Below are positions 5,348-20,659 of a stretch of 32,848 nt of DNA, in pieces (the stretch's first letter is position 1; each line of letters begins with the position of its first letter). Below the pieces are notes generated by a model that did not search any database, had not been told where the DNA came from, and saw nothing but the letters and a program-made list of their open reading frames with translations. The DNA comes from Candidatus Bathyarchaeota archaeon (lineage in GTDB: Archaea; Thermoproteota; Bathyarchaeia; 40CM-2-53-6): NCBI GenBank assembly GCA_963706285.1, contig CAVPLU010000020.1:1-32848 (forward strand), given 5' to 3'. A program made the translations under genes and the position numbers.

Positions 5348-5383
5348 AAGCTCCAGCACTGACGGCGGACGGGTACTAGCATT

Positions 5384-6016
5384 CTAGTCTTTTCGTTCGA
5401 GCATGAGCTTGGTGATCTTTGTTCCGTATCTTTCCTTATATTCAGTGAGACACGGTTTGCAGCAGAAGTAGCGGTTTCTATCTCCAATCAGAAGTGTGAC
5501 GGGGTCGCCATGTATTTCTTGTCCACATAGGTCACAGGTGAGTCTAACAAATTGGCCCGGGCGGATTGCAACGTTCGGTTCATCCTTGACGACCCGCGCT
5601 ACCACATTATAAGTTAGAGATGCCACGTTCGGTATCGACGAGATCGTCGATGACAGAAGTGTCTGAAGTTCATCCAGGCTAGCTGTGAACACGGTAAAGA
5701 GCACGTTGTGTTCGCCTGTCATTCCGTAGACGTTCCGTATCTCCGGCACCTTTGCCAGAGCGTTCAGGACATCATCAGCCTTACCGGGTTCTACCCTTGC
5801 CGTCGCAACGGCAAATAGCCCACTCGTTATCTTGGAAGCATCAATTATGGGCGCAATCTTCTTGATCAAACCCATATCCAGCATTTTCCGCAGATGACTT
5901 TCGACTGTGGGCGTACTCACCCCTGCGGTGCGGGCGATATCCCTCAGGGAACGTCTGCCATCCTCCGTAAGTGCGGTGAGAATGTGATAGTCTGTATCAT
6001 CAATTCGATTTGGCAA
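5384..6016 (-). CDS. Lrp/AsnC-family regulator with C-terminal TRASH domain (CopT/CopR-like metal sensor); probable start TTG 6016, ORF open to 6052
   Basis: IDDTDYHIL..DGRRSLRDIA HTH, AsnC/RAM domain, CDLCG...YFCCKPC TRASH motif; convergent with copA. Confidence 0.88.
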   Translation of the reverse strand: MPNRIDDTDYHILTALTEDGRRSLRDIARTAGVSTPTVESHLRKMLDMGLIKKIAPIIDASKITSGLFAVATARVEPGKADDVLNALAKVPEIRNVYGMTGEHNVLFTVFTASLDELQTLLSSTISSIPNVASLTYNVVARVVKDEPNVAIRPGQFVRLTCDLCGQEIHGDPVTLLIGDRNRYFCCKPCLTEYKERYGTKITKLMLERKD

Positions 6017-6358
6017 GACACACGCCAGTAGTACTTTGAGTACTGGCCACATTAAAATAGTTATCAGGAGAACGCCAGTTCAGTGCCATTATGCGGGAGA
6101 CCGCAAATGGGTCTTCTCTGTACTTGTCAGACAAGGATGATGTTGCTCTGGATCATGCCTCTTTGGATACTGAACCAGTCGGAATCAAAACAGTGTCGGC
6201 AGTATCGCGAGCAGATTCCTATCCCTGTAGGTCTGTAAACCCTTACACCTTCCATTCCGTGACCGCCTTCGTGCAGGCGCGCGACCGCTTAAATACTCAA
6301 GTGGTTCGATTCTGGCCTAAAGCGATTCAGATGATGTTCTCACTGAGGGAATCCTGAA

Positions 6359-7693
6359 TTGAGCAAAGATGTCATTGAAATCCTTGAGAAAGCTCCGCTA
6401 ACGCGTTTTCACTATGGGCTGCTATTGCTTGGCAGTCTGATCTACGGATTCACCGCGATGAACGTCCTGCTTATAGCGGCGGTATTGACTCCGATAATAG
6501 CCGAGTTTGGACTGAAACAGCAACCTCTCGTTTCCGGTCTTCTTCTGAGTGCAGGTTACCTTGGCATGTTCGTGGGTGCGCTTTCATGTGGTGTCCTGGC
6601 GGATCACATCGGGAGAAAGAAGACGCTGCTTCTGACGATTCTGACGATGACAGTTTTCACTGCACTAAATTCGCTTGCCCCCGATCCCCTGACCATGGCG
6701 GTCCTGCGTTTTCTGGCCGGCATAGGGCTAGGTGGCGCTCTGCCACAACCAGGAGTCTACGTCTCAGAATACGTTCCAGCGAAGTATAGGGGGCGATTCT
6801 TGGGGTTAGTTGAAACGTCTTGGGTCTACGGTGCGCTGCTTTCGCTTGTTTTCCCGCGTTTTCTCTTTCCGAGCCTTGGATGGCGTCCTACCTTCCTAGT
6901 GGCCTTGGTGCCACTTTTCTTGATTCCCATTGTCGCCTTTTCTGCGCCGGAATCACTTCGATATCTGCAGCTGAAGGGCAGAACCGAAGAGGTAACAATC
7001 CTCCTCAAGAAATACAAGCTAGTTCCCGCAGACTTCGGGCAAGTGATGAAAGTCGCTGCTTCGAAATTCGGTTCCAGAGCCGCCTTGAAGGAACTGTGGT
7101 CTCCGACTTTTCGAAAAAGAACTGCTATGTTATGGATTGCATGGGCAGTGTTGGTCTACACATACCATGGAATCTTCACTTGGTTGCCCACTTTCTACGC
7201 GAGTTCCCCGATGAACCTCACGGTCGTAAAATCTATTGAATGGGTACTTATCGTCACCTTGGCACAGGTCCCAGGTTACTATACCGCGGCGCTTCTGCTG
7301 GATCGCGTCGGAAGGAAGCCGATTGCAATCACGTATCTTGCCTTGGCTGGCGTAGGAAGCGTCCTGCTAAGCCTAGCCGCAGCTCCATCATCCATACTAC
7401 TATGGAGCATCGTCATTTCTTTCTTCAACCTCGGTGCTTGGTCAGCCTTGTACGCGTACACCCCTGAACTGTACCCCACCCGTATGAGAGGGACTGGTAC
7501 GGGAGCTGCAGCGAGCATTGGACGTGCCGCAGGAGTCATCGCACCGACGGCCACCCCACTCCTCTACGCATACGGAGGCCTTCCGGCTGCATTCGCGATT
7601 TTTGCTTTGGCTCACATATTGGGAGCCATTGCGGTCGCTGTCCTAGGTACTGAAACGAAGGGAAAAACCCTAGAGGAAATCTCCAGGCAATAG
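6359..7693 (+). CDS. MFS transporter (sugar porter/aromatic acid:H+ symporter-like)
   Basis: About 12 TM segments; GVLADHIGRK motif A; VSEYVPAKYRG; PESLRYL; ELYPTRMRG; ETKGKTLEEI. Confidence 0.93.
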   Translation: MSKDVIEILEKAPLTRFHYGLLLLGSLIYGFTAMNVLLIAAVLTPIIAEFGLKQQPLVSGLLLSAGYLGMFVGALSCGVLADHIGRKKTLLLTILTMTVFTALNSLAPDPLTMAVLRFLAGIGLGGALPQPGVYVSEYVPAKYRGRFLGLVETSWVYGALLSLVFPRFLFPSLGWRPTFLVALVPLFLIPIVAFSAPESLRYLQLKGRTEEVTILLKKYKLVPADFGQVMKVAASKFGSRAALKELWSPTFRKRTAMLWIAWAVLVYTYHGIFTWLPTFYASSPMNLTVVKSIEWVLIVTLAQVPGYYTAALLLDRVGRKPIAITYLALAGVGSVLLSLAAAPSSILLWSIVISFFNLGAWSALYAYTPELYPTRMRGTGTGAAASIGRAAGVIAPTATPLLYAYGGLPAAFAIFALAHILGAIAVAVLGTETKGKTLEEISRQ

Positions 7694-7929
7694 TGAGCTA
7701 GACCCTGATGTTACAGTGACCTTATGAGACATGACTTCAGACAATCTAAGAATCGCAGCCACTCGCCCGATGACAAAGCCAGCAAGCGCAAAGAATCGGA
7801 AAGCCCTGTGTTGAAGCTTCGAAGGTTCTCAGCCAGTGAGACGTGGACACGTAGGCTAAAGGCAAGGTAAGTTCTTTCCATCACCGGGGGACATGGCGTG
7901 CATCTATCTTGACGCGTGTCCTCGCCAGC

Positions 7930-8955
7930 CTAGAATGCTGAATGGAAAATCGAATGCGCATATTCTCTGATCGCGTTTGCCTTATTCTCGAAATCTCGGA
8001 ACGACCAACCCGGGTAGGGGCGATGCGTCGTCGTCAAGACCAAGCGATCAGACCCTACATTTTTGATCACGCATTTGACGACATCAACCAGCTCCTCCTC
8101 AGAGACCCTGGGGTTACAGAGGAGGTCTATCGGGATACCGGTGAAGAAGATGGCGTCTGGGAGGGATCCCCTCACAGCGGCCAGCGCAGTTGCCCACTCA
8201 CGCGCGGCCGCAATGGTTGATTTTGGCCTAGTGTCGAGAGGGTGAAAGCCCGAGTAACCTTGAGCTAGTGCCGCGAGGTATTTCGTGACATCTCCGTCAC
8301 TGTGGAGAACAGAGTACTTTCCCCCTTTGATGATTGCTCGTCCCAGCTCGACCTGTCTACGAACAATAGTGAAGGCGAACTCTGGTTTGTAGATTGATCC
8401 CATGTAACCACAAGAATCGTCGGCGATTCTGATCGAATCGATCGCGTCGTATTCGACTGCTCGTTTGACTACGTGACGAAGAAGATCTGAAAATTTCGCA
8501 TGGATCACATCTGCTTTGTTAGGACTCAGGACCGTCAAGATGGAAAAATCAAACCGATGCGAGATCTGGCCTAGTCTTCTTGCCTGAGGAGTCTTCCCTG
8601 AACTACACGAGCACTCAGAGTACTCTGTCGGTCCCAGAAGCTCAAGTTGAAACGACTTTGTTCGATCCACTGTGATAGTCTCGGCCACAATCTCGTCCAT
8701 CTCAGCTACGAGATCGTCAACGGCAGGCCAGTCGTAGGCGTCTGGATCAAGCCTATCACACCATTCCCGACGCGACTCTAGATCTCGCTTGAAAGGCCCA
8801 CCTTCCTCGTAGAAATCAAAGGACTTGAACCAGCATCGAACACCTACAATGTCGCCTATCCTCGCCTCAAGCTTCGGATCGGCAAGCCAGAAGTACAGCG
8901 GGAGCCTAGTTGCTCTTCCCTGCATGGCTTCCGAGATCAAAGTCCGAGAGGTCAA
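7930..8955 (-). CDS. uroporphyrinogen decarboxylase/MtaA-CmuA-like TIM-barrel protein (divergent)
   Basis: IRIADD-G, VLHSDGDV, GFHPLD, GIPIDLL, C-terminal LVLTTTH...FEN pattern typical of the URO-D/CIMS superfamily. Confidence 0.65.
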   Translation of the reverse strand: MTSRTLISEAMQGRATRLPLYFWLADPKLEARIGDIVGVRCWFKSFDFYEEGGPFKRDLESRREWCDRLDPDAYDWPAVDDLVAEMDEIVAETITVDRTKSFQLELLGPTEYSECSCSSGKTPQARRLGQISHRFDFSILTVLSPNKADVIHAKFSDLLRHVVKRAVEYDAIDSIRIADDSCGYMGSIYKPEFAFTIVRRQVELGRAIIKGGKYSVLHSDGDVTKYLAALAQGYSGFHPLDTRPKSTIAAAREWATALAAVRGSLPDAIFFTGIPIDLLCNPRVSEEELVDVVKCVIKNVGSDRLVLTTTHRPYPGWSFRDFENKANAIREYAHSIFHSAF

Positions 8956-9021
8956 TCAACACAACTCTCAAATGTACAGTGCGGGATCGCCATCAGATCA
9001 CGATGATTGTTAGAGAAATTA

Positions 9022-9127
9022 TGGAGCCCCGGCCGAGGTTTGAACTCGGGACCCTTGCCTCTTCAGGCGTCGTTACCAAGGCAATGCTCTCGGCTGCAAA
9101 GCATCTACCAGGCTGAGCCACCGGGGC
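9022..9127 (-). tRNA. tRNA-Thr(GGT) with two BHB introns (9089-9104 at 22/23; 9061-9073 at canonical 37/38) and encoded CCA
   Basis: Reverse complement: GCCCCGG TG GCTC AGCCTGGTAG[16 nt]AGC A TTGCC TT GGT A[13 nt]A GGCAA GGGTC CCGAG TTCAAAC CTCGG CCGGGGC T CCA. Confidence 0.93.
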
Positions 9128-9152
9128 TGCGGTTCAGGTCAGGATGATCTTC

Positions 9153-9164
9153 TAATAAAGTTTC
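9153..9164 (-). promoter_or_regulatory. TATA box/BRE of tRNA-Thr
   Basis: gaaac-tttatta on the minus strand, about 26-37 nt upstream of the tRNA 5' end. Confidence 0.55.
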
Positions 9165-9376
9165 GATTAGGAAAGGGCACGTCATTTTCGCTGACACATC
9201 GGTGCTATCTCGCTGCTCTGAAATGACAGAAACGTGAGCATGTCGGTCACCTTCCTCTCCCGATTGGTCAAGCAGAGGTTTGTGTATTCGCCGCTCGTCA
9301 AACGCTTTTACCAAATGTTTAAGACTACTCCGCCATTCAAGTCTGCTCAACGAATCATAAGGAGGAAGAATGAATA

Positions 9377-10252
9377 TTGGTTAAGCGATGTCCAACATGC
9401 GGATACAACAACAGAGATGACGCCGTCTTCTGCTCGAGCTGCGGCGGTTCACTTGCTGCCGCTGGAGCACCAATGATGAAACCAGTGCCGTCAGTTCGTG
9501 TCGTAACTCCGGTCACGTCAGGGGCGCCAATGAGGGTTCCTGCACCAGGAATGTGTTTCTACCACCCGAGCCTTCCAGCTGTGTACATATGCAACCGTTG
9601 TGGCAGAGCAATCTGCCGTGACGACTCAAAGTCCTACATGGACCTAATCCTCTGCCCACAATGCTACCAAGGAATTGTGCCACCGATGGCAATGGCTCCG
9701 CAAGCACCACAATACGCGCCAGCACCACAGTATGGGCCACAATTTGCACCTGCACCACAATTTGCACCTGCGCCACAATTTGCACCTGCGCCACAATTTG
9801 CACCTGCGCCACAATTTGCCGGACCTATGATGGGTCCTATGGGACCTCCCATGATGGGAGCCGGACCTGCAAGGTCGCTATGGGCTTTCATACTTGCTTT
9901 GGTTTCAGGAATCCTTGTGCTGCTCAACGCGGGACTGCTGCTAGCGTGGCAATTCTACGGCGGAACATTCCTTTGGGCGAACATATTCTTCTGGATCTGC
10001 AACATTGACCGTTCTACAGGATGTCCACTGCCTTCAGGATCTACTGCGACTGGCACGATCACATTCGTGATCGGAGCGATCATAGGCCTAATCATAATCG
10101 TCGGATCGATTATGATGATCCTAGGATACGGCACAATCGGCAGCCTCATCATTTTCCCGCTAGCCGTCTTCAGCCTGATCATAGGCGGCGGCTTCATCGC
10201 AGGCTTCATACTAGGAATCATCGCCGGTATCATGGGCATGTTAGGGCGATAG
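9377..10252 (+). CDS. membrane protein: N-terminal zinc ribbon, B-box-like zinc finger, Pro/Gln/Phe repeat linker, C-terminal multi-TM domain
   Basis: CPTC-x10-CSSC; C-x2-H-x8-C-x2-C-x4-C-x2-D-x9-C-x2-C; (APQFAP)n; three to four hydrophobic helices ending in a Gly-rich GGGFIAGFILGIIAG segment. Confidence 0.85.
   Translation: MVKRCPTCGYNNRDDAVFCSSCGGSLAAAGAPMMKPVPSVRVVTPVTSGAPMRVPAPGMCFYHPSLPAVYICNRCGRAICRDDSKSYMDLILCPQCYQGIVPPMAMAPQAPQYAPAPQYGPQFAPAPQFAPAPQFAPAPQFAPAPQFAGPMMGPMGPPMMGAGPARSLWAFILALVSGILVLLNAGLLLAWQFYGGTFLWANIFFWICNIDRSTGCPLPSGSTATGTITFVIGAIIGLIIIVGSIMMILGYGTIGSLIIFPLAVFSLIIGGGFIAGFILGIIAGIMGMLGR
9737..9819 (+). repeat. 18-bp in-frame tandem repeat (CCACAATTTGCACCTGCR), about 4.6 copies, encoding PQFAPA
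   Basis: Directly visible; more degenerate PQY copies precede it from about 9700. Confidence 0.95.
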
Positions 10253-10269
10253 TCCTTATATCCCCCCAG

Positions 10270-10281
10270 TTTTTTTTCTTT
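10270..10281 (+). terminator. oligo-T archaeal terminator candidate
   Basis: ttttttttcttt starting 18 nt after the stop at 10252. Confidence 0.55.
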
Positions 10282-10295
10282 AACTTAGTATCTGT

Positions 10296-11954
10296 TTGGT
10301 CGTGTGTTCCGTGTCGTATGTGGCGATCTCCGGCCAAGTAACCGAGAAGTTGGTTAGGGAGGCGAGAGATCATCCAGAAGAGCAGGTCGTCGGTGTATTG
10401 CTCGGCGGACAGTTTGGCAGCACGATTGCCATTGAAGACGCCGCGACAGGACCTGCGGATGCCGACGCCACAAGGGCGACACTAACCGGGGATTCGATCG
10501 CAAGAATAGCGGATGACATAATCAATAAGAGAATAAGAGGAAGTATTGTGGGTTGGTATCATTCTCATGTTCGCGGTGGCGTCTTCATGTCCGAGACAGA
10601 CGTGGAGACTCAGCTCAAGCTCCAACAGTTCTCTCCTCTGGTGACGGCAATGGTGATTGATACGCAAACCGGAACATCAGGATTCTTCAGGGCTGACCCG
10701 AAGACGCGAGAAGCGGTGTCTGTGCCTTCACAGAACGCAAGGACCGAAGTCTCATCGCCCGTTTCCACGTCTAACTATGCGCCTGAGCGGGCTACGTACC
10801 CGCAGTATCCCGTACAGGTGACGCAGGGTCCATCAACTCGTACATTGTTGCTTGCGCTTTTGATTATCACATTGGCCGTAACAGGAGGCATCTTGGCCCT
10901 GGTATACTACCGCAACCCAACTGTCTCGGGGAGCAGCGGCAATCTCGCGATAACTCATGCTCAACCTGCGGGACCGTTCACGATCGGGAACCCCATAACG
11001 ATCGATGCAAACGTCACCGGCTCTAATCTACTGAATGTCACGTTGGCCTACAAGATAATCGAAGCAGCTCCCAACTCCCAGGGCGGATTGATCATCGGAG
11101 ACTTGGTTCAAGTGCCCATGCTTCCAAGATCGGCAGAGTGCACGAGTAACGAACCCTGCACGTATTCCTACACATTGCCGTCTTCTGAAATATCTGGACG
11201 CTTTGTTCAGTACTACGTCTCCGCCTTTGACACGGCCTCCCCACCAAACACTGTTCGCACCGACATCTTCACTCTCAATGTGGGCGACTTCAGTTGGGGT
11301 GCGGACAAGACCGAGGTGGTTGCTATTCGACAAGCCCAGGCCGGCGTATCAATTCCCTTAAATTCGATTAATGGATTCAATGATCTCGTCACCCTCAGAA
11401 TCCTCACTCAACCGCCGCTAGGAGTTCGAATAGTTCCTATCAGCACGCAAGTTCGTCCTCCAAACGCCGCCAACCTAATAATAACCAGCACTGATAACGC
11501 TCAGATCACTAACAAGTACCCAATTCAAGTCGACGCCGTCTACACTATACGCAACGTGCAGGTGATACGCTCCACGACACTAGAGCTCACATTGACTGAC
11601 TTCGGCATCGCTGTATCGCCAACCTACGCGAAGACTACGCAATGTTATGCCTCCGATAGCTGTACTGACTCGAATGAGTTCGCACAGTACACCGTGACGC
11701 TTACGATCTACGACGGCTTCACCGCGCCGAACGGTATCCTACTCGTCCCAAGTGGACTTCCGGATCATACTCGCTACGAGATTCTGTTGGTTAGTCAGAA
11801 GATTGGCACGGACGAAACACAGACATTAACCTACTCTCTCATAGTACGCGCTGATACCGATTCCACCGTGAACAGGTACCTCTTTTCAATGGTAGCGACG
11901 GCCGGGAGCATCACACATAGTGTGGACAATATCCAGTTTGAGATCGTGGACTGA
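10296..11954 (+). CDS. membrane-anchored JAB/MPN (JAMM, Rpn11-like) domain protein with large C-terminal extracytoplasmic beta-rich region (start may be GTG 10311)
   Basis: VVGVLLG then GWYHSH-x7-S-x2-D-x2-TQ (H89, H91, S99, D102); TM at aa 184-204; about 345 aa Thr/Val-rich Ig-like region with two close Cys pairs. Confidence 0.9.
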   Translation: MVVCSVSYVAISGQVTEKLVREARDHPEEQVVGVLLGGQFGSTIAIEDAATGPADADATRATLTGDSIARIADDIINKRIRGSIVGWYHSHVRGGVFMSETDVETQLKLQQFSPLVTAMVIDTQTGTSGFFRADPKTREAVSVPSQNARTEVSSPVSTSNYAPERATYPQYPVQVTQGPSTRTLLLALLIITLAVTGGILALVYYRNPTVSGSSGNLAITHAQPAGPFTIGNPITIDANVTGSNLLNVTLAYKIIEAAPNSQGGLIIGDLVQVPMLPRSAECTSNEPCTYSYTLPSSEISGRFVQYYVSAFDTASPPNTVRTDIFTLNVGDFSWGADKTEVVAIRQAQAGVSIPLNSINGFNDLVTLRILTQPPLGVRIVPISTQVRPPNAANLIITSTDNAQITNKYPIQVDAVYTIRNVQVIRSTTLELTLTDFGIAVSPTYAKTTQCYASDSCTDSNEFAQYTVTLTIYDGFTAPNGILLVPSGLPDHTRYEILLVSQKIGTDETQTLTYSLIVRADTDSTVNRYLFSMVATAGSITHSVDNIQFEIVD

Positions 11955-11979
11955 TTGAAGGCAGACTTGATTGCTTGCT

Positions 11980-11987
11980 GGAGGTGA
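11980..11987 (+). promoter_or_regulatory. Shine-Dalgarno site for the ubiquitin gene
   Basis: GGAGGTGA ending 9 nt before TTG 11997. Confidence 0.7.
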
Positions 11988-11996
11988 AAGAAGCAC

Positions 11997-12248
11997 TTGA
12001 AACTCTTCGTTCAGGCACCTATTGGGCCGCAGACAGGGCTGGCTGAGATCGATGTCATACCGGATCATACAGTCGGAGAGATCAAGCAGCAGGTATGCAC
12101 CTCGTTCGGAGTTGATCCTGCTACGGTCGCCTTGATGTACGGTGGCATCATACTTGACGAGTCCAGCACAGTCAGCAGAGCCGGGATCCCTGAGAATGCC
12201 CAACTTGCACTGATGCCCTACAATATCATCGGTGGCAACGGAAGGTGA
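11997..12248 (+). CDS. eukaryote-like ubiquitin homolog, precursor with GG followed by NGR
   Basis: Colinear with ubiquitin: MKLFV..IDV.PDHTVGEIK...GV....LMYGG.IL....TV...GI......L......GG; strong RBS; stop overlaps the E2 start (GTGA). Confidence 0.9.
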   Translation: MKLFVQAPIGPQTGLAEIDVIPDHTVGEIKQQVCTSFGVDPATVALMYGGIILDESSTVSRAGIPENAQLALMPYNIIGGNGR

Positions 12249-12838
12249 ACCTTCCGCTTCTCTACAAGGAGAAGAATTTCACAAACCACCAATTCCCAAC
12301 GGTAATGGCTCTCAATGATCCGCCTACGGCATACGAGGGTATGCTCAGGTGCGAGAAAGGAGATGTGAAGACTCTCGCTGAGAAGAAGATCTGGCCCTTC
12401 ACCGAGTACGCTGACTGGAACAGATTCAGGCTAGAACTTCCCGACGAGTATCCGGTGAAGCCTCCCAAAGCGATGTGGCTCTCCGACATCTCCCACCCAA
12501 ACATCGTGCCTAAAGTCATGAACGCTGTCTGCGTCTCGATCATTGGTGAGAACTGGCGCCCCGACCTGAAACTTGTCTCTGTAGTGAACGCTCTTTACTA
12601 CCTACTGTCTGATCCAAACCCTGACAATGTATTCGACCACCCCGATTGCCTCAAGGCTGCAAACGTCTGCAGATCATACGGATTTCCAAAAATGACAAAG
12701 CGAAAGACTGCGACACAGCAGGGCGATCTTGTTCGATTCAACATCGTCCCAGTACCTCAAGCGCGACCAAGAGAGCCTGCACCGACGGGAGATGTGATAC
12801 GATTTCGAATCCTTGACAGGGAGCGAAAGGAACATTAG
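12245..12838 (+). CDS. ubiquitin-conjugating enzyme E2 (UBC fold) with C-terminal tail
   Basis: FRLELPDEYPVKPPK, HPNI (84-87), catalytic Cys96 in VCVSII, WRP, LLSDPNPD. Confidence 0.94.
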   Translation: MNLPLLYKEKNFTNHQFPTVMALNDPPTAYEGMLRCEKGDVKTLAEKKIWPFTEYADWNRFRLELPDEYPVKPPKAMWLSDISHPNIVPKVMNAVCVSIIGENWRPDLKLVSVVNALYYLLSDPNPDNVFDHPDCLKAANVCRSYGFPKMTKRKTATQQGDLVRFNIVPVPQARPREPAPTGDVIRFRILDRERKEH

Positions 12839-14095
12839 TTGAAAGTAAAGCTCTCGATGCCGTCTGTTCGAGACATAGAACTTGACGTTCCTTCAACAGC
12901 AACGATCAGTTACCTTAAGGAAAAGGCATGCAAGAAGCTAGGAATCGAGTCTGACCTGACAAGCATCCTATGTGATGGTACTCGGATCGATGGAAAACGA
13001 AGCGTCGGCAGCCTCCATCTCAAGCAGAAGATCCTGACAGTCGACTATCTCTGGGCTCGTCATCTAATACTTTGGGGGCCGGATGGGCAGAAACGACTCA
13101 GAGGAGCAACTGTACTTGTCGCTGGTGCGGGGGCGATCGGTAATGAGGTTGCGAAGAATCTTGCAATGCTCGGCGTCAAGCGCCTACTGATTATTGACAA
13201 CGATACCGTCGAACTTTCGAACACGAGTCGAATGATCTTCTTCGATCGCAAGAGCCTGGGCTTGAACAAGGCGGAAATGCTCGCTAGAGGAATCACCCAG
13301 AAGTTCCCCTATGTTGAAGCAATTGCATGGACCGGAGCGCTCGAAGATCTTCCACTCGAACACATTCTAAGTGCCGACGTGATCGTGTGCGGTCTGGACA
13401 ATGTACTCTCCAGGATATACCTAGCACAAGTTTCCAGAAGGTACTCCATACCAATGATAGACGGAGGCATCGTTGGGTATCGCGGACGTGTCCAAGTCTA
13501 CGTTCCCCCAGACACGCCATGCCCGCTGTGCACATACCCATCCTCCGAATACGGCCGCATTGCAGGGCTCAGGAACCCCTGCGATGGGCCAGCTGAAGAA
13601 ACGAAGGTCCCATCTCTTCCGACGACGATCTCGTTGGTTTCTTCGATCCAATGCCAGGAGGCGACCAAACTGATCGTCGGTTACCAAAGCTACTTGAGAA
13701 ATGCAATTTGGCCGAAAGAGACCGGAGAACCGCTCAGGGGCGTGCTGATGATCGACTTGCAGTACAATCGTTACAGTCTAATGGAGATCAAACGAAATAA
13801 GAGCTGCATTGTGTGCGGGGAAAACGGCCTGGCCGAGAAGCCTGTGCCAGTGCTGACGATCCCAATAGGAGAAATTCGCGACTCAACCTCCAGACTGCAT
13901 CAGATGGTTGCTAGCAGAATGAAATTGACAGCACAACAAGTCATGTTGTTCTTGCAGCGTCATAACAAAACGGTGCGAGTCAAGAGAGGGCAGTCTCTTC
14001 GGCGGGCACGCATCGGTGTGGGGAGCGTCATCACCGCGGTCGCACAAGATGGCCCCAACTACAGTGAAGCTGTGATTAGGCTCACAGGACCCTAG
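12839..14095 (+). CDS. ubiquitin-activating enzyme E1 (ThiF/MoeB adenylation domain) with N-terminal Ubl domain and C-terminal UFD-like domain
   Basis: RHLILWG..GQ..L, GAGAIG, D.DTVELSN..R, GLDN, CPLC and CIVC zinc pairs, probable catalytic Cys248 (NPCDG); starts immediately after the E2 stop. Confidence 0.93.
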   Translation: MKVKLSMPSVRDIELDVPSTATISYLKEKACKKLGIESDLTSILCDGTRIDGKRSVGSLHLKQKILTVDYLWARHLILWGPDGQKRLRGATVLVAGAGAIGNEVAKNLAMLGVKRLLIIDNDTVELSNTSRMIFFDRKSLGLNKAEMLARGITQKFPYVEAIAWTGALEDLPLEHILSADVIVCGLDNVLSRIYLAQVSRRYSIPMIDGGIVGYRGRVQVYVPPDTPCPLCTYPSSEYGRIAGLRNPCDGPAEETKVPSLPTTISLVSSIQCQEATKLIVGYQSYLRNAIWPKETGEPLRGVLMIDLQYNRYSLMEIKRNKSCIVCGENGLAEKPVPVLTIPIGEIRDSTSRLHQMVASRMKLTAQQVMLFLQRHNKTVRVKRGQSLRRARIGVGSVITAVAQDGPNYSEAVIRLTGP

Positions 14096-14211
14096 ACCCA
14101 GGGCGAATGCATGAATGCATGGTAGCAGCGTTAGAGCTCCGATGGACAATGGGTATCAAACGTAGCAATGGTTATTACATGTCTGAGTCGGTATCTGATT
14201 AGGTCTGGACC

Positions 14212-14595
14212 ATGCGACAGTGTTCATCCTGTGGAAGTAGAAACTCCGATGATGCAGCTTTCTGTAGCATGTGTGGTTTCTCCTTTGCTGGAATCCAACC
14301 GCAGCAGTACATGCAACCGGTCGGAGCGGCGATGAAGCCTGTTCCAGTTGTGAAAACGATCACCCCATTAGCGCAGGCAGGCCCGCAGCAGCAGTGGCCG
14401 GTTCCAATGGCTCGGTCGCAGATGACGGTCGGATCCTGCTCTTTTCACCCTGAGCTTCCGGCTTCATACATATGCATTCGATGCGGCAAGCAGATATGCT
14501 TCTCCTGCACGAAAACCTACGGTCAGCTCGCGATATGTCCCGAGTGCTACTGGGCGATGGCACCGCGCACAGGCACAGCGCAGCCAGGGCGCTGA
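14212..14595 (+). CDS. soluble zinc ribbon + B-box-like zinc finger protein, paralog of the N-terminal half of 9377..10252
   Basis: CSSC-x10-CSMC; C-x2-H-x8-C-x2-C-x4-C-x2-C-x9-C-x2-C; shared MKPVP.V..[VI]TP linker motif. Confidence 0.85.
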   Translation: MRQCSSCGSRNSDDAAFCSMCGFSFAGIQPQQYMQPVGAAMKPVPVVKTITPLAQAGPQQQWPVPMARSQMTVGSCSFHPELPASYICIRCGKQICFSCTKTYGQLAICPECYWAMAPRTGTAQPGR

Positions 14596-14606
14596 AACGA
14601 GCTTCC

Positions 14607-16223
14607 CTACGCGAGGAGCCCTTTCCTCTTCAGTCGCTCTGTGGATAGCTTGACCTCATTCACGGACAACCCAAGATCCTTCGAAGCTTGGCTGAGTGAT
14701 ATCTCACCATTTCGTTTCGCGATATATTGGTAGACTCGGTTATCCAGCTCCTCCGAGCCAGCAGCTGCTGAGGCCTGGCCTCGCTTCCGGGCAGCTCCAG
14801 CAACTGCCGTCTTGCGTCGCCTGACACCAGAGCTAAGTGACGAGCCTAGCCTTGCAAAAGATCTCGGGCGCTTCGCAACTATGAATATGAAGGCAGTGAC
14901 GATTGTTGCTGCGGCGCCCAAAGAGACAATGAAGATCCACAAGGATGCGTAGTCTGTGACCCACTGTGCTTCTACCATGTAGGGTCGATCCATCGTGACC
15001 TCATTTTCACCCGGTGGGACAGCGCTAATCACATTAGAGGAATTGAGGCGCCAGCCAGCGAGCGTATGTTTCACTAACAATTCTGACCCGCTGTAAGTCA
15101 CACCAAACTTTGCTTTTTCCCCATCAAGATACCAGCCAGTACCTGTCGGTTCCCCAAATGAGGACGTTACGAGAAGGTAGTACTGTGTTTGATAGATCAA
15201 CCGTACGTTGTGCGGTTTGTTCATCACAAGCTCCGCCGATATTCCTGGCTGAGTCATGCCATCGATATTCCATGAAAGCCAGACAAATCGTTGAACCGAG
15301 CTTCCCGGGATTGAGATTGTTTGAGGAACAGGACCAAGAGAAGCAGTCTGGCCAGCATCGTACCAGGTGCTGTTAGGGGTCGAGATTCTCTGAGCGATAT
15401 CTGGTGGATCGTAGGTGACTTCCAATTTGTATTGTGTCTTGTATCTTGCAGTCACTGACTTGGGTCCATCCATGCGAGCAGACCCGTGGGAATCGGTACC
15501 TGTATAGTCTCCTACCCATTGAACAAAAACTTGCCGAGTATCGGTTCCATTTGTTCCTTTGGGTGCAAGGAAATCTGCCGTAGATCCAGCGTCGAGCCAG
15601 AGAGTTGAGGGCGAGAAAAGTCCGACCGGATCATACGATATTCGGAGGATATACTGTGTCTTCCAGGTGGCAACTGCTTTCTTCGGACCATTCATGATTA
15701 TGGAGTCGGAGATTATCCCCTGCCCTGAGGCATCTTGTCCCCACTTGACAAACAGATATCTTACTCCTTCGGATCCGCTTGTCATGTTCGTGTCCAACTT
15801 GGCTTGGGCAGTTGTTCCCCCGTCGTACCAATCACTTCTAGACGGCGTTCCGTACTGTGAGACGACTTCGAGGTAGTATTGTGCCTTGTAGGTGAATGCG
15901 TGAGTGCCAGTGCCAGTTCCCGTGAAGGACCACAGATTGTCTTTGCATTGATACCTGGTTCCGTTGGTCCCGCCCACGTTTAGGTCGACGCTGAGCGTGT
16001 GCGCACCGCCAGGAGAGATGCTTAGGGTCTTCGTGTCGCCTGTTGCAATCGTTCCGTTCAGCATGCCGTCGAGGTAATATTGAGTTCTTGCTCCGCTCGG
16101 AAGCCCTGTCACTGTGAAGGAGACGGAGTACGCTTGAGCCTTCACGAGTGTCGGTGCGGTGACGAGAGAAATGAGGATCAGTACGTCGAGTGCCAAGATG
16201 GCCAATCTAGTCCTCGACAACAT
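14607..16223 (-). CDS. type I membrane/surface protein: signal peptide, about four QY-x-L...WY repeats, TM, basic linker, C-terminal winged-helix domain (probable start ATG 16223; ORF open to 16325)
   Basis: Signal ending VKA-QA; repeats QYYLEV/QYILRI/QYKLEV/QYYLLV with W[YL]DxG; TM LWIFIVSLG..FIFIV; tail RVYQYIAKRNGEISLSQASKDLGLSVNEVKLSTERLKRKGLLA. Confidence 0.85.
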   Translation of the reverse strand: MLSRTRLAILALDVLILISLVTAPTLVKAQAYSVSFTVTGLPSGARTQYYLDGMLNGTIATGDTKTLSISPGGAHTLSVDLNVGGTNGTRYQCKDNLWSFTGTGTGTHAFTYKAQYYLEVVSQYGTPSRSDWYDGGTTAQAKLDTNMTSGSEGVRYLFVKWGQDASGQGIISDSIIMNGPKKAVATWKTQYILRISYDPVGLFSPSTLWLDAGSTADFLAPKGTNGTDTRQVFVQWVGDYTGTDSHGSARMDGPKSVTARYKTQYKLEVTYDPPDIAQRISTPNSTWYDAGQTASLGPVPQTISIPGSSVQRFVWLSWNIDGMTQPGISAELVMNKPHNVRLIYQTQYYLLVTSSFGEPTGTGWYLDGEKAKFGVTYSGSELLVKHTLAGWRLNSSNVISAVPPGENEVTMDRPYMVEAQWVTDYASLWIFIVSLGAAATIVTAFIFIVAKRPRSFARLGSSLSSGVRRRKTAVAGAARKRGQASAAAGSEELDNRVYQYIAKRNGEISLSQASKDLGLSVNEVKLSTERLKRKGLLA

Positions 16224-16436
16224 GAAGGGGGGCCTCCGCCACCCGTTTAGCATGTGTCTAGGCCTAAAATGTGTTACACTCTCGGATCTGCCTTCATCGT
16301 GCCAAAACAGCAAGCCGGTAGTCAATCTCTGTTGTTAGATTGACTGCGCCGATATGGAGGATGCGAAGCTTGACGATACGATTTGCCAAGCCCATGAGCG
16401 CAATCGTCATAACTAATTCGGCCCCCTCACTGAGTT

Positions 16437-16805
16437 ATGGCTTCCACTCCGTACACGCGAGGCAGAAGTAGAGAATACCAAGTGCTGAAGAAACTGAGAC
16501 GCGAAGGGTGGTACTGTAGCAGGAGCGCAGCATCTCACGGCCCCGTGGACGTCTTCGCTGGGAAGAACGGACTCGTCCGCATGATTCAAGTGAAGAGCGG
16601 GCAAGCCAGACTGAGGCCTGGAGACAGGGAGACCCTCAAGCTTTGGGCACAAGCTTACGCCGGAGTAGCTGAGGTCTGGTATTTTGGCAAGCGCACAGGC
16701 ACAAAAATAGAAGTGATTCTCGACGCAAGAACACGACTTCTAACAACTTCACTCACATGTGCACGTCCAAGCAGACCTGGTAGCGACAAGGGCCAACACT
16801 TCTGA
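16437..16805 (+). CDS. Holliday junction resolvase-like PD-(D/E)XK nuclease (Hjc/Hje family)
   Basis: RG...EY.V...L...GW...RSAAS.GPVDVFA.K......IQVKS; 3' end overlaps the convergent gene by 53 nt. Confidence 0.8.
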   Translation: MASTPYTRGRSREYQVLKKLRREGWYCSRSAASHGPVDVFAGKNGLVRMIQVKSGQARLRPGDRETLKLWAQAYAGVAEVWYFGKRTGTKIEVILDARTRLLTTSLTCARPSRPGSDKGQHF

Positions 16806-17598
16806 CCACATGTGATTCTATGTTACCTTCCCCTGCGCCTATCTGTCTGAAACACGAGGACTCAAACTTCGACAAAGCCTGCATGCTTGCCGATGATCTA
16901 CGATTTGAGTCGATGAACACATAGCAGTGGACTACCCCGCAACCATTCTTCAATGCACTTTTCGCTGTCGGAAGAGACTGCAATGCCAATTCAGGCAACG
17001 GCAGCAAGACTCGATCAGCGCATCCGTTGAGAAAAGAGGACACTAGTTGGTTCGCGTCTCCGCAGATCACATCTATTCTATCTCGTACTCGGTTGAGTAC
17101 GTTGTTCATGGCATGATAGCGAACGGCCACTGGGTTGATGTCGAGGGAATAGACTCTTGAGGGGTGTGAGTGCTTCGCGATCATTATTGAGAAAGATCCC
17201 ACTCCAGCGAAAAAATTTACAACACATTCTCCCTGAGAAACCAAATCAGCAATTCGCTTTCGTTCATGACTGAGTCTCGGTGAGAAATACATCGTCTCTA
17301 GGTCGACTCGGTATTGGCAGCCATGCTCGCGGTGCAGAGTCTCGGTCCGTTGCTCACCCGCCAACCATTCAAACTTCCGGGTTCGAAACTGCGAACTAAC
17401 CGGACTAGTCTGTTCCAAGACGACTTTGAGGTTAGGTGCTAGATCAAGTAGGCTCTCCGCAATTTGGTGCTTTTCATGCTGAAATTCGTCGGGAAGCTTC
17501 AGGATCGCTATGTCTCCAACTATGTCAACACCTTTTTTGAGACGAGAAAGCTGTCCCGTGTCTAGGCATTTCTTTGCAGATTTCGCGAGTAGCCTCAA
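16753..17598 (-). CDS. Trm5/Taw2-family (Met-10+) SAM-dependent tRNA modification enzyme, lacking the D1 domain; Taw21-like
   Basis: DIVGDIAILK, FRTR, HREHG, YFSPRL..ERKR, FAGVGSFSI, DINP, DRVLLPLP; directly downstream of taw1. Confidence 0.85.
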   Translation of the reverse strand: MRLLAKSAKKCLDTGQLSRLKKGVDIVGDIAILKLPDEFQHEKHQIAESLLDLAPNLKVVLEQTSPVSSQFRTRKFEWLAGEQRTETLHREHGCQYRVDLETMYFSPRLSHERKRIADLVSQGECVVNFFAGVGSFSIMIAKHSHPSRVYSLDINPVAVRYHAMNNVLNRVRDRIDVICGDANQLVSSFLNGCADRVLLPLPELALQSLPTAKSALKNGCGVVHCYVFIDSNRRSSASMQALSKFESSCFRQIGAGEGNIESHVVRSVGPCRYQVCLDVHM

Positions 17599-17634
17599 CG
17601 TCGAACGCCACCGATCACCATTGAGGCTTCAGTC

Positions 17635-18570
17635 TCACAATTTGTCAAGTGAGAGATCTAGCGTAGATGAATCTCGTGCGAGAAGAACGACCCTGCTTAC
17701 CGTGTCCTCGGCGACATACTCGTATCCCGTGATTCTCGCAATTCGGTTTGCGAATTCTCTGATCTCGGAGTGATATGGCATTGCAGTGATCGGTAGTCGT
17801 TGCTTCGATTCTCCTAGCCAACTGTATCCCTTGAGCTCGACGATATCCACTGCTCCCTCTGCTACAAGTCTCGAGTACTTCTCTGGGCCGTTCATGTTCT
17901 CTCCCTTCACGAGTGTGAGCCTCAAGATTGTTCGGGATCGTTCGAAGCGACGCATCAATCGAAGGCTCGTCAGAACTCTCTGCCACGCGTCGGAAATCAT
18001 TGGGTGAGTCACATTTTCGTACGTTTGACTATCTGGTCCACACAAGCTCAAGTACAGGTTCGTAGGCTCCGTCTTGCGTTCTGCAATCTCTTCGAGTCTT
18101 TCAGGCATGGTGCCGTTGGTTACCAGGAAAGATGTCATTCCCTTTCGATCGATCTCGCGGATGAGCGTCCCGATGTGTGGGTAGAGAGTTGGTTCCCCAT
18201 CGAGAGAGATTGCGACGTGCTTAGGGTTCATCGATTCTTCGAACAGTTTCCCCGTTACATGTGGATTTGCTTTGAAGCCAGAGAGGAGTTTCCGCTGTGC
18301 CATAATCGCTTCATCCAGAATCAAATCGGGAGGATCCCAAGCTTGTTCCGAGTTGAATCGTTCACCTGTGTGGAAGCGCCAACAGAAGATGCAACGTAGG
18401 TTACAGAACTGCAGTGAAGGAGTAAGCTGCAGGCACATGTGACTCTGGACACCATACCATCTCTTGTAGCATAGTCTGCGTCCCATGAGTGCAGAACGTG
18501 CCCATCTGCAGATCTGAATGCCTGAGTGTCTTCCCACAAGCCTGTAACCTGCTCTGAGGTATCTTCGTAG
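17635..18570 (-). CDS. taw1: 4-demethylwyosine synthase (Tyw1/Taw1 radical SAM); true start uncertain, called ORF starts at 18537
   Basis: GY.LVGRHS...ICRW, CYK..WYG..SH.C, CNLRCIFCWR, HVAISLDGEPTLYP, FLVTNG, VELKGY. Confidence 0.93.
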   Translation of the reverse strand, partial: LRRYLRAGYRLVGRHSGIQICRWARSALMGRRLCYKRWYGVQSHMCLQLTPSLQFCNLRCIFCWRFHTGERFNSEQAWDPPDLILDEAIMAQRKLLSGFKANPHVTGKLFEESMNPKHVAISLDGEPTLYPHIGTLIREIDRKGMTSFLVTNGTMPERLEEIAERKTEPTNLYLSLCGPDSQTYENVTHPMISDAWQRVLTSLRLMRRFERSRTILRLTLVKGENMNGPEKYSRLVAEGAVDIVELKGYSWLGESKQRLPITAMPYHSEIREFANRIARITGYEYVAEDTVSRVVLLARDSSTLDLSLDKL

Positions 18571-18705
18571 CGTGACCGGCCCGAAGCTCGACGGCGATCT
18601 GGCTGAGCGGAGATCTTGGCATCATTCTGGTTTGGGCCTCCGCATCGAGCAAGAATCTGCCGACCGCTTGACTGTTTTGAGTATGGTGAATTTGCCTCTT
18701 GATCT

Positions 18706-19848
18706 CTAACGATATGGGATGAATTCTCTGCCCAAGAGTTCTCTTGCGACGATCATCTTCATAATGTCTGATGTGCCGTCGCCGATCATGGCTCCTCTGA
18801 TTTCTCTCAAACGGTATTCGTCTAGAGTCTCTGTTGTGAAGCCTACTGCTCCGCGGTTCTGTATGCAGTCATTTACGACATTGAAGGCAACCTGAGGAAC
18901 CCAGAACTTTATCATGGCTGACTCTCTTGTGAATGGTTGCTTCTTGTCCTTCAGCCAGAATGTTTTGTAGCAGAGGAGTCTAGCTGCCTGGAGGGTCGTG
19001 TAGTCCTCGGCGATTCGAAATTGAACCGATTCGAACTTGCCAATAGGGCTTCCAAAGGCTTTCCTTTGCTTCACATATTCCATGGACTCCTCAAGCGCTG
19101 CCTCAGCCATCCCGACTGTCCAGAGGGCTATGTATGCCCGCATGAGGTCGAAGGTTTCCATGACGTAGTAGAAGCCCTTGTTTTCCTCTCCGATCAGGTT
19201 GCTCGCGGGGACGACCACGTCCTTGAGTACGAATCCTCCGAATGAGAACAACCTCCATCCAAGGGCGTCAAACAGATACTTCTCAAGGCCCGGGCGATCA
19301 GTCTCGACGAGAAACATGCTGACTCCCTTTGCGTCGTTCCTCTGTCCTGTTCTAGCCATGAGACAATATGCGGCGCATTCGTTGATGCCTGTGATGCACT
19401 GCTTCTCGCCGTTGATCACATATTCATCGCTTTTCTTCACGGCGCGGGTTGAGATTGATCCCGCGTCCGAGCCTACACCGGGCTCTGTTGAGGCGACACC
19501 AAGCATCTTCTCACCGCTCGCGAGCGAGCGCAGCCACTTGTCCTTCAGCTGCTGGGATCCATGCAAGTAGAGTATCTCCGCCATGATGTCGCCGAGGGGG
19601 ATCTGCCACCCGGCTCGGGCAAGCTCTTCAACGGCGATCGCCATGGTCGTCGCATCGGATTCTTGACCACCATATTCCTTCGGCAGTCTCAGCCCAAGCA
19701 AGCCAGCCTTGCCCATCTTCCGGTAGATTTCCCACGGAAACTGGCCTTTTCGCTCATACTCGCGGATCTTCGGAGCGACCTCTTTCTGCGCGAACTCACG
19801 GACGGTGCGTCTGAAGAGTTCCTGCTCATTAGTGAAATTGAAATCCAA
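18706..19848 (-). CDS. acyl-CoA dehydrogenase, cyclohexanecarboxyl-CoA dehydrogenase-like (probable start TTG 19848; ORF open to 19890)
   Basis: TEPGVGSD, INGEKQCIT, R.AFG.PI..F..VQF, and C-terminal IGDGT..IMK in place of the usual IYEGT. Confidence 0.9.
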   Translation of the reverse strand: MDFNFTNEQELFRRTVREFAQKEVAPKIREYERKGQFPWEIYRKMGKAGLLGLRLPKEYGGQESDATTMAIAVEELARAGWQIPLGDIMAEILYLHGSQQLKDKWLRSLASGEKMLGVASTEPGVGSDAGSISTRAVKKSDEYVINGEKQCITGINECAAYCLMARTGQRNDAKGVSMFLVETDRPGLEKYLFDALGWRLFSFGGFVLKDVVVPASNLIGEENKGFYYVMETFDLMRAYIALWTVGMAEAALEESMEYVKQRKAFGSPIGKFESVQFRIAEDYTTLQAARLLCYKTFWLKDKKQPFTRESAMIKFWVPQVAFNVVNDCIQNRGAVGFTTETLDEYRLREIRGAMIGDGTSDIMKMIVARELLGREFIPYR

Positions 19849-19936
19849 TGCTCCCTGCTCCACCACAAAGGCAATTGTCCTATTCTTCACACCGCTGATA
19901 AGCTTGCCCTTGACTGATCGATGCGCTGCAAGGTGT

Positions 19937-20542: not shown

Positions 20543-20659
20543 GGTCAAAGCATCGTCTAACGTACAGGGATTGCTGGACTCAGCTTCAGACGATAAGTAC
20601 TCTATCAAGGCAGCTATTATATTCCCGTCAAAATGCTTTCGATGTGAGCTCCAACTGCA

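Follow-up and report, generated by a model that had tools for sequence, protein, structure and literature searches.

The window analysed here is a stretch of 32,848 nucleotides, contig C20 (CAVPLU010000020.1) of a 2.13-Mb, 21-contig genome bin of a Candidatus Bathyarchaeota archaeon (completeness 89%, contamination 7.5%), and it carries at positions 9377–16325 a cluster of seven intact open reading frames (ORFs), located from an ORF listing and Pfam matches. Six of these genes run in the order ZnTM, JABTM, Ub, E2, E1 and ZnS and encode a membrane-anchored zinc-ribbon/B-box-like protein, a JAB protein fused to a transmembrane (TM) helix, ubiquitin (Ub), an E2, an E1 and a soluble zinc-ribbon/B-box-like protein, and the seventh, Surf, is convergent to the other six and encodes a surface protein. 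We show below that this seven-gene block, centred on a predicted Ub–E1–E2 cascade, is inherited or lost as one unit among related genomes, and we propose, tentatively, that it serves ubiquitin conjugation at the cell membrane.

Conservation and co-inheritance of the cluster

The order ZnTM–JABTM–Ub–E2–E1–ZnS with a convergent Surf gene recurs at 20 loci in 20 genomes, which represent approximately ten families of one order, and as judged from these sequences the arrangement is far beyond chance. ZnTM is present at 19/20 loci, the sole miss (L032) being truncated by a contig end, and Surf is also present at 19/20; ZnS was found at 18/20 and a JAB with a TM helix and an outside domain at 17/20. 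A pattern scan based on an 18-sequence E2 alignment returned 60 loci, 54 of them in metagenome-assembled genomes (MAGs) of Candidatus Bathyarchaeia or Bathyarchaeota, two in archaea and four in short contigs with bacterial labels. E2 matches occur in 67 of 401 genomes of the phylum, and within the class but outside the order they were seen in 1/51 genomes of the families listed.

Among 41 related genomes, E2 is present in 29, which come from the genus and family of the window's genome and from nine other families of its order. Full-length ZnTM was found in 26/29 of the E2-positive genomes and in 0/12 of the E2-negative ones, the three misses being contigs cut at the cluster, and a Surf-type tail (E<=1e-20, in ORFs of 520–735 aa) was found in 29/29 and 0/12 respectively; as these 41 genomes are kin, the counts are not independent events. 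The seven genes thus behave as a single block in inheritance and loss. The linkage of a TM-bearing JAB and B-box-like genes with Ub, E2 and E1, which a first-pass annotation made from the window alone had put forward, therefore extends to relatives of the window's genome, where ZnTM and the Surf tail occur only with E2. Outside the genus, median identities were 86% for Ub, 64% for E2, 52% for ZnTM, 47% for E1, 39% for ZnS, 37% for Surf and 31% for JABTM, making Ub the most conserved gene of the cluster.

A Hjc-like gene (16437–16805; Pfam Hjc 8.2e-6) adjoins Surf at 17/20 loci and was considered as an eighth member. It was rejected, since strong orthologues occur in 24/29 E2-positive but also in 2/12 E2-negative genomes and no other Hjc-like gene was found in the genome, which leads us to read it as a housekeeping neighbour; in the E2-negative genera of the same family, Hjc-like matches are weak or absent.

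At the sequence level the layout described by the first-pass annotation was borne out. The JAB, Ub, E2 and E1 genes are co-oriented, the GTG start of E2 overlaps the TGA stop of Ub within a GTGA (the junction reads ...AGGTGAACC) and the TTG start of E1 directly abuts the TAG stop of E2. The two bracketing zinc-ribbon/B-box-like genes, taken to be paralogous, do share approximately 40% identity over approximately 100 residues, the convergent gene does encode, by hydropathy, a protein with a signal/anchor and one TM segment, and the supposed TACK-type archaeon belongs to the Bathyarchaeia. The contrast drawn between the intact cluster and broken genes in the right half of the window is likewise present, a molybdopterin oxidoreductase being split at 25914–28720. 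Three of the seven proteins, ZnTM, JABTM and Surf, have predicted membrane segments, these calls being Kyte–Doolittle hydropathy windows rather than the output of a dedicated TM predictor. From hydropathy alone, the JAB domain, both zinc-binding heads and the Surf tail would be cytoplasmic, and approximately 345 aa of JABTM and approximately 400 aa of Surf would lie outside the cell.

The ubiquitin, E2 and E1 proteins

The Ub gene (11997–12248, + strand) encodes 83 aa with a Pfam ubiquitin match of 8.5e-10 and a C-terminus that reads ...IIGG-NGR. The protein is 79–96% identical with 14 aligned Bathyarchaeia orthologues; G79 is invariant, G80 is found in all 15 Bathyarchaeia sequences, and 0–6 residues follow the GG. 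It has two lysines only, K2 and K30, and the last Arg upstream of the GG end lies 19 residues away from it, so that a tryptic digest would leave a 19-residue remnant and no diGly. The E2 (12245–12838, + strand, 197 aa; Pfam UQ_con 6.1e-16) consists of a UBC core and a tail of approximately 50 aa with two conserved strand-like motifs, and both H84-P85-N86 and C96 are invariant in 18/18 aligned sequences. Among solved structures its nearest relatives are eukaryotic E2s (E 8e-15), with 269 solved E2 sequences matching at E<=1e-3.

The E1 (12839–14095, + strand, 418 aa) gave a ThiF match of 6e-48 and an N-terminal ubiquitin-family match of 2.3e-5. It is made up of an N-terminal ubiquitin-like domain (UBL, residues 1–70), an adenylation domain (74–294), two CxxC pairs, C248 and a C-terminal stretch of approximately 85 aa that is possibly a ubiquitin-fold domain. 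The glycine-rich nucleotide loop, R131, D187, C228/C231 and C323/C326 are invariant in 19/19 sequences, and C248, the presumed catalytic Cys, is found in 15/15 Bathyarchaeia E1s. The N-terminal UBL is likewise present in 15/15 Bathyarchaeia E1s, as against 0/4 E1s from the RING-containing clusters of other families of the phylum that are compared with the window below. Among solved structures the E1 is closest to eukaryotic UBA1 (7e-26), ahead of MoeB/ThiF (2e-17). Sampylation of the SAMP/UbaA kind, which is E2-independent, was also considered and was rejected, given a score of 95.9 bits with the NCBIfam model of SAMP-activating E1 (cut-off 450) and the presence of a UBC-fold E2. We predict, with considerable confidence, that the core of the cluster forms a working Ub–E1–E2 cascade.

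The zinc-ribbon/B-box-like proteins ZnTM and ZnS

ZnTM (9377–10252, + strand, 291 aa) and ZnS (14212–14595, + strand, 127 aa) both match Pfam Zn_Ribbon_1 (1.1e-6 and 2.5e-7 respectively) and, below cut-off, zf-B_box (0.0061 and 0.0015 respectively). In ZnTM, an N-terminal zinc ribbon at C5–C22 (9389–9442, + strand) with the pattern C-x2-C-x3-N-x6-C-x2-C is followed by a linear motif, KPVPSVRVVTP (9479–9511, + strand), a B-box-like domain (9554–9664, + strand; C60-x2-H63-x8-C72-x2-C75-x4-C80-x2-D83-x9-C93-x2-C96), a P/Q/A-rich linker and a membrane domain (residues 163–291; 9863–10249, + strand) to which hydropathy assigns approximately four TM helices in three merged runs. In the alignment of 17 ZnTM orthologues, C5, C8, N12, C19 and C22 of the ribbon and K35, P36, V37, P38, V40, V42, V43 and P45 of the motif are invariant (17/17), and the ligands of the B-box-like domain are conserved. 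ZnS, for which 16 sequences were aligned, is a soluble paralogue of the ZnTM head, with a zinc ribbon (C4–C21), the counterpart of the motif (K42–P52, KPVPVVKTITP) and a B-box-like domain (C76–C112) with eight Cys/His ligands. We regard the motif, KPVPxVxVxTP, as a candidate docking peptide; in the structural model of ZnS it lies in a linker with low predicted local distance difference test (pLDDT) values.

The ligand pattern common to both proteins is C-x2-H-x8-C-x2-C-x4-C-x2-(C/D)-x9-C-x2-C, and its first six ligands, C-x2-H-x8-C-x2-C-x4-C-x2-C/D, fit what we take to be the B-box2 pattern of TRIM/RBCC proteins. The zf-B_box family (PF00643) is the best non-ribbon Pfam match of ZnTM and ZnS, and at E<=0.01 it is found in 14/16 ZnS (best 1.1e-5) and 15/17 ZnTM (best 1.8e-4) sequences. 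An AlphaFold2 (AF2) model of ZnS, with a pLDDT of 72.6 overall and 83–92 over B-box residues 71–100, has two folded zinc-binding parts joined by a floppy linker. The ZnS ribbon superimposes on RanBP2/NZF fingers (Nup153, TAB2 and Npl4) with a root mean square deviation (rmsd) of 0.7–1.5 Å over 26–27 residues at a Z of only 2.4–2.7, fold-match scores of ZnS being too low for a family assignment, and a Foldseek search with the ZnS model returned nothing at E<=1e-3. The spacing of the ribbon and its Asn agree with RanBP2/NZF, Pfam Zn_ribbon_RanBP matches at only 0.035, and the ribbon has neither the Trp before the first Cys nor the Thr-Phe after the second. This Thr-Phe pair contributes the ubiquitin-binding residues of NZF fingers. 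A ZnS profile search of 1.84 billion proteins gave 12,008 matches, mostly to multi-ribbon proteins, and the range of the full module is not given thereby.

No RING family reached its Pfam cut-off in any of the seven proteins, the one sub-threshold match being Prok-RING_1 on ZnTM (E 0.0096, 16.3 against 29.1 bits). The first-pass description of the system as RING-less is correct to this extent, but it should not be read as E3-less, as proteins with a putative B-box-like cross-brace stand at the positions of RING proteins. It is chiefly this positional analogy with RING-containing clusters that leads us to call ZnTM and ZnS E3 candidates, and we put the chance that they act as ligases or adaptors at about even.

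Several further features of these proteins were noted. The ZnTM linker (9700–9860) contains AP(Q)F/APQY repeats and is highly variable in length, with a collagen-like GPP/GMQ insert in one orthologue. The ZnTM membrane domain (profile approximately 110–258) also ends proteins of 725–850 aa in relatives (e.g. G002:C41, G016:C1 and G019:C24). Paralogues with the B-box and TM domain and no ribbon occur in some E2-positive genomes, and the E2-negative genome G040 encodes a ribbon and TM domain with no B-box.

The membrane-tethered JAB protein

JABTM (10296–11954, + strand, 552 aa; Pfam JAB 2.7e-12) consists of a JAB/MPN domain (residues 6–114), one TM helix at about 180–206 and an outside domain of approximately 345 aa. 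The motif H89-x-H91-x7-S99-x2-D102, and with it the zinc ligands, is kept in 14/14 aligned sequences. The canonical position of the catalytic Glu (10383–10385) is occupied in the window by Q30, with E29 one residue before; this JAMM position is Gln in the genus and Gln, Arg or Lys across several families, and Glu is found there in the aligned orthologues L030, L035 and L041, as well as in the JAB of another order at L128. The JAB had been called receptor-like in the first-pass annotation, which fits its fusion to a TM helix and an outside domain but takes no account of the Gln that replaces the canonical catalytic Glu in the genus. Another contig of the same genome encodes a 147-aa JAB that is soluble and has the Glu intact, and the JAB of another order is TM-anchored and has no outside domain. 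For JABTM there are 98 database clusters, whose names say at most ‘proteasome lid subunit RPN8/RPN11’, and a search of the ESM Atlas with the outside domain gave scores of 0.76–0.81, which are leads at most.

The surface protein Surf and its winged helix

Surf (14607–16325, − strand, 572 aa) has the layout of a type-I membrane protein, with a signal/anchor, a repeated outside domain, a TM helix at about 458–485 and a cytoplasmic tail; its true start probably lies downstream of the listed TTG. The outside domain is of two kinds among the orthologues, either InlB-B-repeat (Flg_new_2; approximately 555–570 aa) or Big_3_5/Big_1 (approximately 650–680 aa), and the tail is conserved in 17/17 while the outside domain is swapped between these two types. 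The surface protein recognized in the first-pass annotation is thus real, with the correction that its conserved part is the cytoplasmic tail and not the outside domain. This tail comprises the TM helix, a zinc ribbon in 15/17 orthologues (absent from the window copy and L029) and a C-terminal winged helix. In the tail region at 14610–14870, a second copy of Surf on contig C4 of the same bin also has no zinc ribbon, and one same-genus orthologue has one.

The winged helix (residues approximately 526–572; 14610–14750, − strand) gave a Pfam match, HTH_24, of only 0.012, and was assigned to the CdvB type by hhalign, Foldseek and VIA. With hhalign, the Surf tail profile matched the C-terminal domain of the genome's own CdvB with a probability of 97.1% (E 5.8e-11, 51 columns). 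The Sulfolobus CdvB winged helix (2xvc_A) ranked second in a Foldseek search with the Surf winged-helix model, in which nothing reached E<=1e-3 (for 2xvc_A, E >1e-3), with an rmsd of 1.2 Å and 33% identity, the highest identity among the fold matches, and VIA gave it a Z of 6.7. The Surf domain stops after the first wing strand, like the ‘broken’ form in CdvB, and on this profile and model evidence we judge the two winged helices to be homologous. The tail profile also picks CdvB-sized ORFs in E2-negative relatives (E 1e-6 to 1e-12), the identity of such an ORF as CdvB being confirmed in the window's genome only.

The same genome contains a Cdv locus with CdvA (PF18822, 8.8e-16), CdvB, Vps4 and two more ESCRT-III genes, and the CdvA proteins of these Bathyarchaeia end in a short strand-like peptide. 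According to the accessible part of PMC12909875, it is through its ‘broken’ winged helix that Sulfolobus CdvB binds the CdvA E3B motif, and the same domain governs the breakdown of CdvB by the proteasome; the CdvA E3B/CdvB interaction, solved as 2xvc, is credited there to Samson et al. 2011. Elsewhere, a soluble 125-aa protein (L145:1245–1622; G000:C16) combines two zinc ribbons with a winged helix of the Surf-tail type, and similar proteins of 148–191 aa occur in E2-positive relatives.

A proposed mechanism and its alternatives

The reading that we favour, to which we give slightly less than an even chance, is that a membrane-tethered E1–E2–(B-box E3) cascade marks the Surf tail for removal and that JABTM reads or reverses the mark, which would amount to eukaryote-like ubiquitin conjugation at the inner face of the cell membrane. 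First, a JAB would trim Ub-GG-NGR to expose the GG, a step for which the soluble JAB encoded elsewhere in the genome may be responsible. E1 would then adenylate Ub, load it on to Cys248 and hand it over to Cys96 of E2. The B-box proteins would act where a small RING and a TM-RING act in related clusters, bringing the charged E2 to membrane targets, the prime one being the cytoplasmic tail of Surf and others perhaps being proteins such as CdvB that bear the same winged helix. Short strand-like motifs, namely KPVPxVxVxTP in ZnTM and ZnS and the two in the E2 tail, may serve for recruitment; we liken them to the peptide at the CdvA C-terminus by which the winged helix of CdvB is completed. Ubiquitylated Surf would be taken from the membrane by an unfoldase/proteasome or by the Cdv (ESCRT-III/Vps4) machinery, and JABTM, kept close by its TM helix and outside domain, would reverse or read the mark. 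Taken by itself, the identification of the Surf tail as a target or docking site is that of a candidate, with the odds somewhat against it.

A number of observations weigh against this proposal. The cluster JAB, with Gln at its general-base position, may be a poor protease or none. L040 and L128 have no ZnS, and one family has the JAB split from the TM and outside part: there, the gene between ZnTM and Ub has no JAB and keeps the TM helix and outside domain, and a 144-aa JAB is encoded elsewhere in the genome. The Hjc-like gene is also syntenic, so that adjacency alone is weak evidence. The assignment of an E3 role to the B-box proteins is one of position and fold class. In the window itself the zf-B_box scores are below the Pfam gathering cut-off (ZnS 19.1 and ZnTM 17.1 against 24.1 bits), residues 67–120 of the ZnS model have cross-brace fingers (FYVE, PHD, RING and B-box) as their best matches only at a weak Z of 2.4–4.6, and hhalign of ZnS against the small RINGs of related clusters gave no homology in the B-box part (probability 15%). 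The window's Surf has no cytoplasmic zinc ribbon of the kind found in 15/17 aligned orthologues, its winged helix has its best Z with DNA-binding domains of the Lrp/AsnC type (8.0 against 6.7 for CdvB), and the likeness of the ZnTM/ZnS and E2-tail motifs to the CdvA C-terminus is by eye only.

The restriction of ZnTM (26/29 against 0/12) and the Surf-type tail (29/29 against 0/12) to genomes with E2 counts against the best of the alternatives, a general cytosolic tagging system resembling that of Caldiarchaeum, in which the membrane proteins would be mere neighbours or minor accessories and the E2 would work with little or no E3. Such a system would draw on a Ub–E2–E1 core that is homologous to that of the RING-type clusters, on a soluble ZnS that could serve soluble targets and on the soluble JAB with intact Glu encoded elsewhere in the genome, and the C. 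subterraneum cascade does modify soluble substrates in vitro, as reported in the accessible text of PMC5654768. However, the gene order is kept across approximately ten families, and even the JAB of another order, which has no outside domain, is anchored in the membrane; we consider general cytosolic tagging unlikely.

The winged helix of Surf raises a second alternative, transmembrane signalling, in which Surf would be a membrane-tethered winged-helix transcription factor and JABTM its co-receptor, an outside cue altering ubiquitylation of the tail so that the tail is released or silenced and transcription is changed. Ubiquitin-dependent processing of membrane-bound transcription factors is known from yeast and provides the model for this idea. 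The top fold matches of the Surf tail are DNA-binding winged helices (Lrp/AsnC, DeoR, ROK and Z-alpha; Z 7.5–8.0) and Pfam adds the weak HTH_24 match (0.012), but by sequence the tail domain is closest to the winged helix of CdvB (probability 97.1%), which binds protein, and at E<=1e-5 the tail profile finds CdvB and not the genome's own Lrp-type regulators. The domain also stops after the first wing strand as in the ‘broken’ CdvB form, and the cluster encodes no protease for release of the tail. These points count for more, in our view, than the large, fast-changing and sensor-like outside domains of Surf and JABTM or the JABs of several families that have no catalytic Glu and would fit a reader or regulator, and we consider signalling improbable.

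Least probable of all is an antiviral or conflict system of the Bil/CBASS-Cap2 kind, which would tag viral proteins or down-regulate a virus-receptor surface protein on infection: the outside domains of Surf and JABTM do change fast and are swapped between families like receptors under viral pressure, the distribution within the class is patchy and E1 gives generic matches to PADLOC ‘E1-E2’ (Cap2) models (1.1e-16, with a weak JAB match of 5.8e-4), but E2, Ub, ZnTM, ZnS and Surf have no PADLOC match, the cluster shows stable chromosomal synteny with housekeeping genes, its ubiquitin is very strongly conserved, and Pfam and neighbourhood annotation found no nucleases, cyclases or mobile-element genes among its members.

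Within the favoured proposal of Surf-tail marking at the membrane, a further step would be that Bathyarchaeia couple ubiquitylation to the Cdv/ESCRT-III machinery, the strand motifs of the B-box ligases and the E2 tail docking in E3B fashion on the broken winged helices of CdvB and Surf, and Ub marking membrane proteins for ESCRT- or proteasome-dependent removal. We regard this coupling as a long shot. Were it correct, a ubiquitin–ESCRT link in membrane-protein sorting would exist outside Asgard archaea and eukaryotes, and would use B-box rather than RING ligases.

Genomic context and other features of the window

The neighbours of the cluster are housekeeping genes, encoding phosphoglycerate kinase (PGK), ribose-5-phosphate isomerase, a P-type ATPase, an Lrp/TRASH regulator and an MFS transporter, together with the Hjc-like gene, two wybutosine genes and an acyl-CoA dehydrogenase. 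Contigs from RNA libraries (four runs from four studies, 88–99% identity) cover ZnTM, JABTM, Ub, E2, ZnS and Surf, and some of them span gene borders; such contigs do not prove transcription, and in these four runs the E1 stretch at 12960–14015 was uncovered.

The molybdopterin oxidoreductase at 25914–28720 is broken into at least three overlapping ORFs (Molybdopterin and Molydop_binding matches), reflecting either a pseudogene or assembly indels, and after it come an intact Fer4_11 subunit and a nitrate-reductase-delta-like chaperone. Positions 1–19913 of the window are 94–95% identical with positions 220728–241413 of contig C4 of the same bin, the matching parts being 1–6027 and 8945–19913; 6028–8944 and 19914–32848 are unmatched in the C4 copy. 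Given the 7.5% contamination of the bin, the C4 copy appears to come from a close relative that was co-binned and not from a duplication, and its JABTM, Surf, Hjc-like and TYW2-like genes are broken by frameshifts or stops. At 1503–1610, Rfam matches a tRNA of 108 bases (42 bits) that was unreported by ARAGORN and is probably an intron-bearing archaeal tRNA.

Comparison with known ubiquitin systems

Studies of how the ubiquitin system arose have been based on the Caldiarchaeum operon and on Asgard archaea. To these the cluster described here adds a second archaeal design, lineage-wide in a group that is widespread in soils and wetlands and marked by RING-like B-box proteins, a membrane-anchored candidate ligase, a membrane-anchored JAB and an E1 that has a UBL of its own. 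The winged helix on the partner surface protein is the one that in Sulfolobus serves to recruit ESCRT-III and to time decay by the proteasome, and if the contacts we propose are real, ubiquitin would have guided the handling of membrane proteins for longer, and more widely, than has been assumed. With seven genes and soluble heads of approximately 100 residues the system is small, and it could be rebuilt in vitro to establish the requirements of a minimal membrane ubiquitin ligase.

The Caldiarchaeum subterraneum operon, which encodes Ub, E2, E1, a small RING and a divergent Rpn11/JAMM protein, was reconstituted in vitro by Hennell James et al. 2017, and the accessible part of that paper (PMC5654768) describes modification of soluble test substrates and of the cascade itself. 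We found clusters of this RING type in other families of the phylum, with a divergent JAB, then Ub–E2–E1 and then a 76–80-aa RING, and with E2s that match that of the window at E 1e-9 to 1e-15; the small RING after E1 gave Pfam matches of 1.9e-10 (zf-RING_2) and 1.6e-9. In all three RING-type clusters that were read through, a protein with approximately four TM helices and a C-terminal RING-H2 is encoded nearby (L129:13107–13802, L130:5759–6523 and L132:12295–13020), with Pfam support in L129 only (1.1e-9) and recognition by sequence pattern in L130 and L132, and in one of the three clusters the JAB ends in a TM anchor (L132:7845–8645). Neither the membrane RING-H2 nor the TM-anchored JAB is mentioned in the accessible text of PMC5654768. 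Membrane anchoring, which the first-pass annotation had singled out as distinguishing the window from such cassettes, is thus a trait of both. In the RING-type clusters one RING protein is soluble and another lies in the membrane, so that the pairing of a soluble with a membrane ligase is a plan common to both designs, and by analogy Bathyarchaeia would fill both ligase roles with B-box proteins.

The window cluster and the Caldiarchaeum type share a Ub with GG and a short tail, a UBC-fold E2, a single-chain E1, the order Ub–E2–E1 and an adjacent JAB. In contrast, the window cluster has no small RING-H2 and has two zinc-ribbon/B-box proteins in its place; its E1 has an N-terminal UBL and no insert of approximately 50 residues, its E2 has a tail of approximately 50 residues, its JAB, co-oriented and in the genus without the canonical Glu, is fused to a TM helix and an outside domain, and a partner surface protein bears a winged helix of the CdvB type. 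The first-pass annotation did not recognize this architecture as described, and in the literature searched we found no description of it, although the February 2017 survey of all archaeal assemblies reported in PMC5654768, of which part was accessible, may list the core genes, and the accessible part of a bioRxiv paper (10.1101/763623) makes general mention of ubiquitin-system proteins in Bathyarchaeota MAGs. Within that literature the RING-replacing B-box proteins, the JAB–TM–outside fusion, the UBL–E1 fusion, the E2 tail and the CdvB-type winged helix on the partner appear to be undescribed.

With the bacterial Bil and CBASS Cap2/Cap3 systems, as presented in the accessible part of PMC10557695, the cluster shares the combination of E1, E2, JAB and a β-grasp modifier in one operon; it differs in an E2 and Ub without PADLOC match, in separate E1 and E2 proteins, in its housekeeping context and membrane partners and in its archaeal, lineage-wide synteny. 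ZnTM and ZnS resemble the B-box of eukaryotic TRIM/RBCC proteins in their eight-ligand, putatively cross-brace pattern, but their last pair is C-x2-C after nine residues and not H-x2-H, and they have no adjoining RING or coiled coil and are joined instead to a zinc ribbon with NZF spacing.

With Sulfolobus CdvA/CdvB the likeness lies in a homologous winged helix that ends after the first wing strand and in a CdvA with a terminal strand-like peptide; unlike CdvB, the winged helix here sits on a type-I membrane protein and not on ESCRT-III, and a zinc ribbon precedes it in 15/17 orthologues. The accessible part of Makarova et al. 2024 (PMC10936438) places the connection of ESCRT with ubiquitin in Asgard archaea, takes the ESCRT machinery of TACK archaea to be simplified for cell division and presents winged helices as the linking module of ESCRT systems. 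In common with Asgard archaea, the present genome combines a ubiquitin cascade with ESCRT-III/Vps4; no ESCRT-I/II, UEV or Vps28 genes were seen in it, although no search aimed at them was made. Unlike in Asgard archaea, the possible link between the two would lie in a surface protein of the ubiquitin cluster itself, through its winged helix of the CdvB type.

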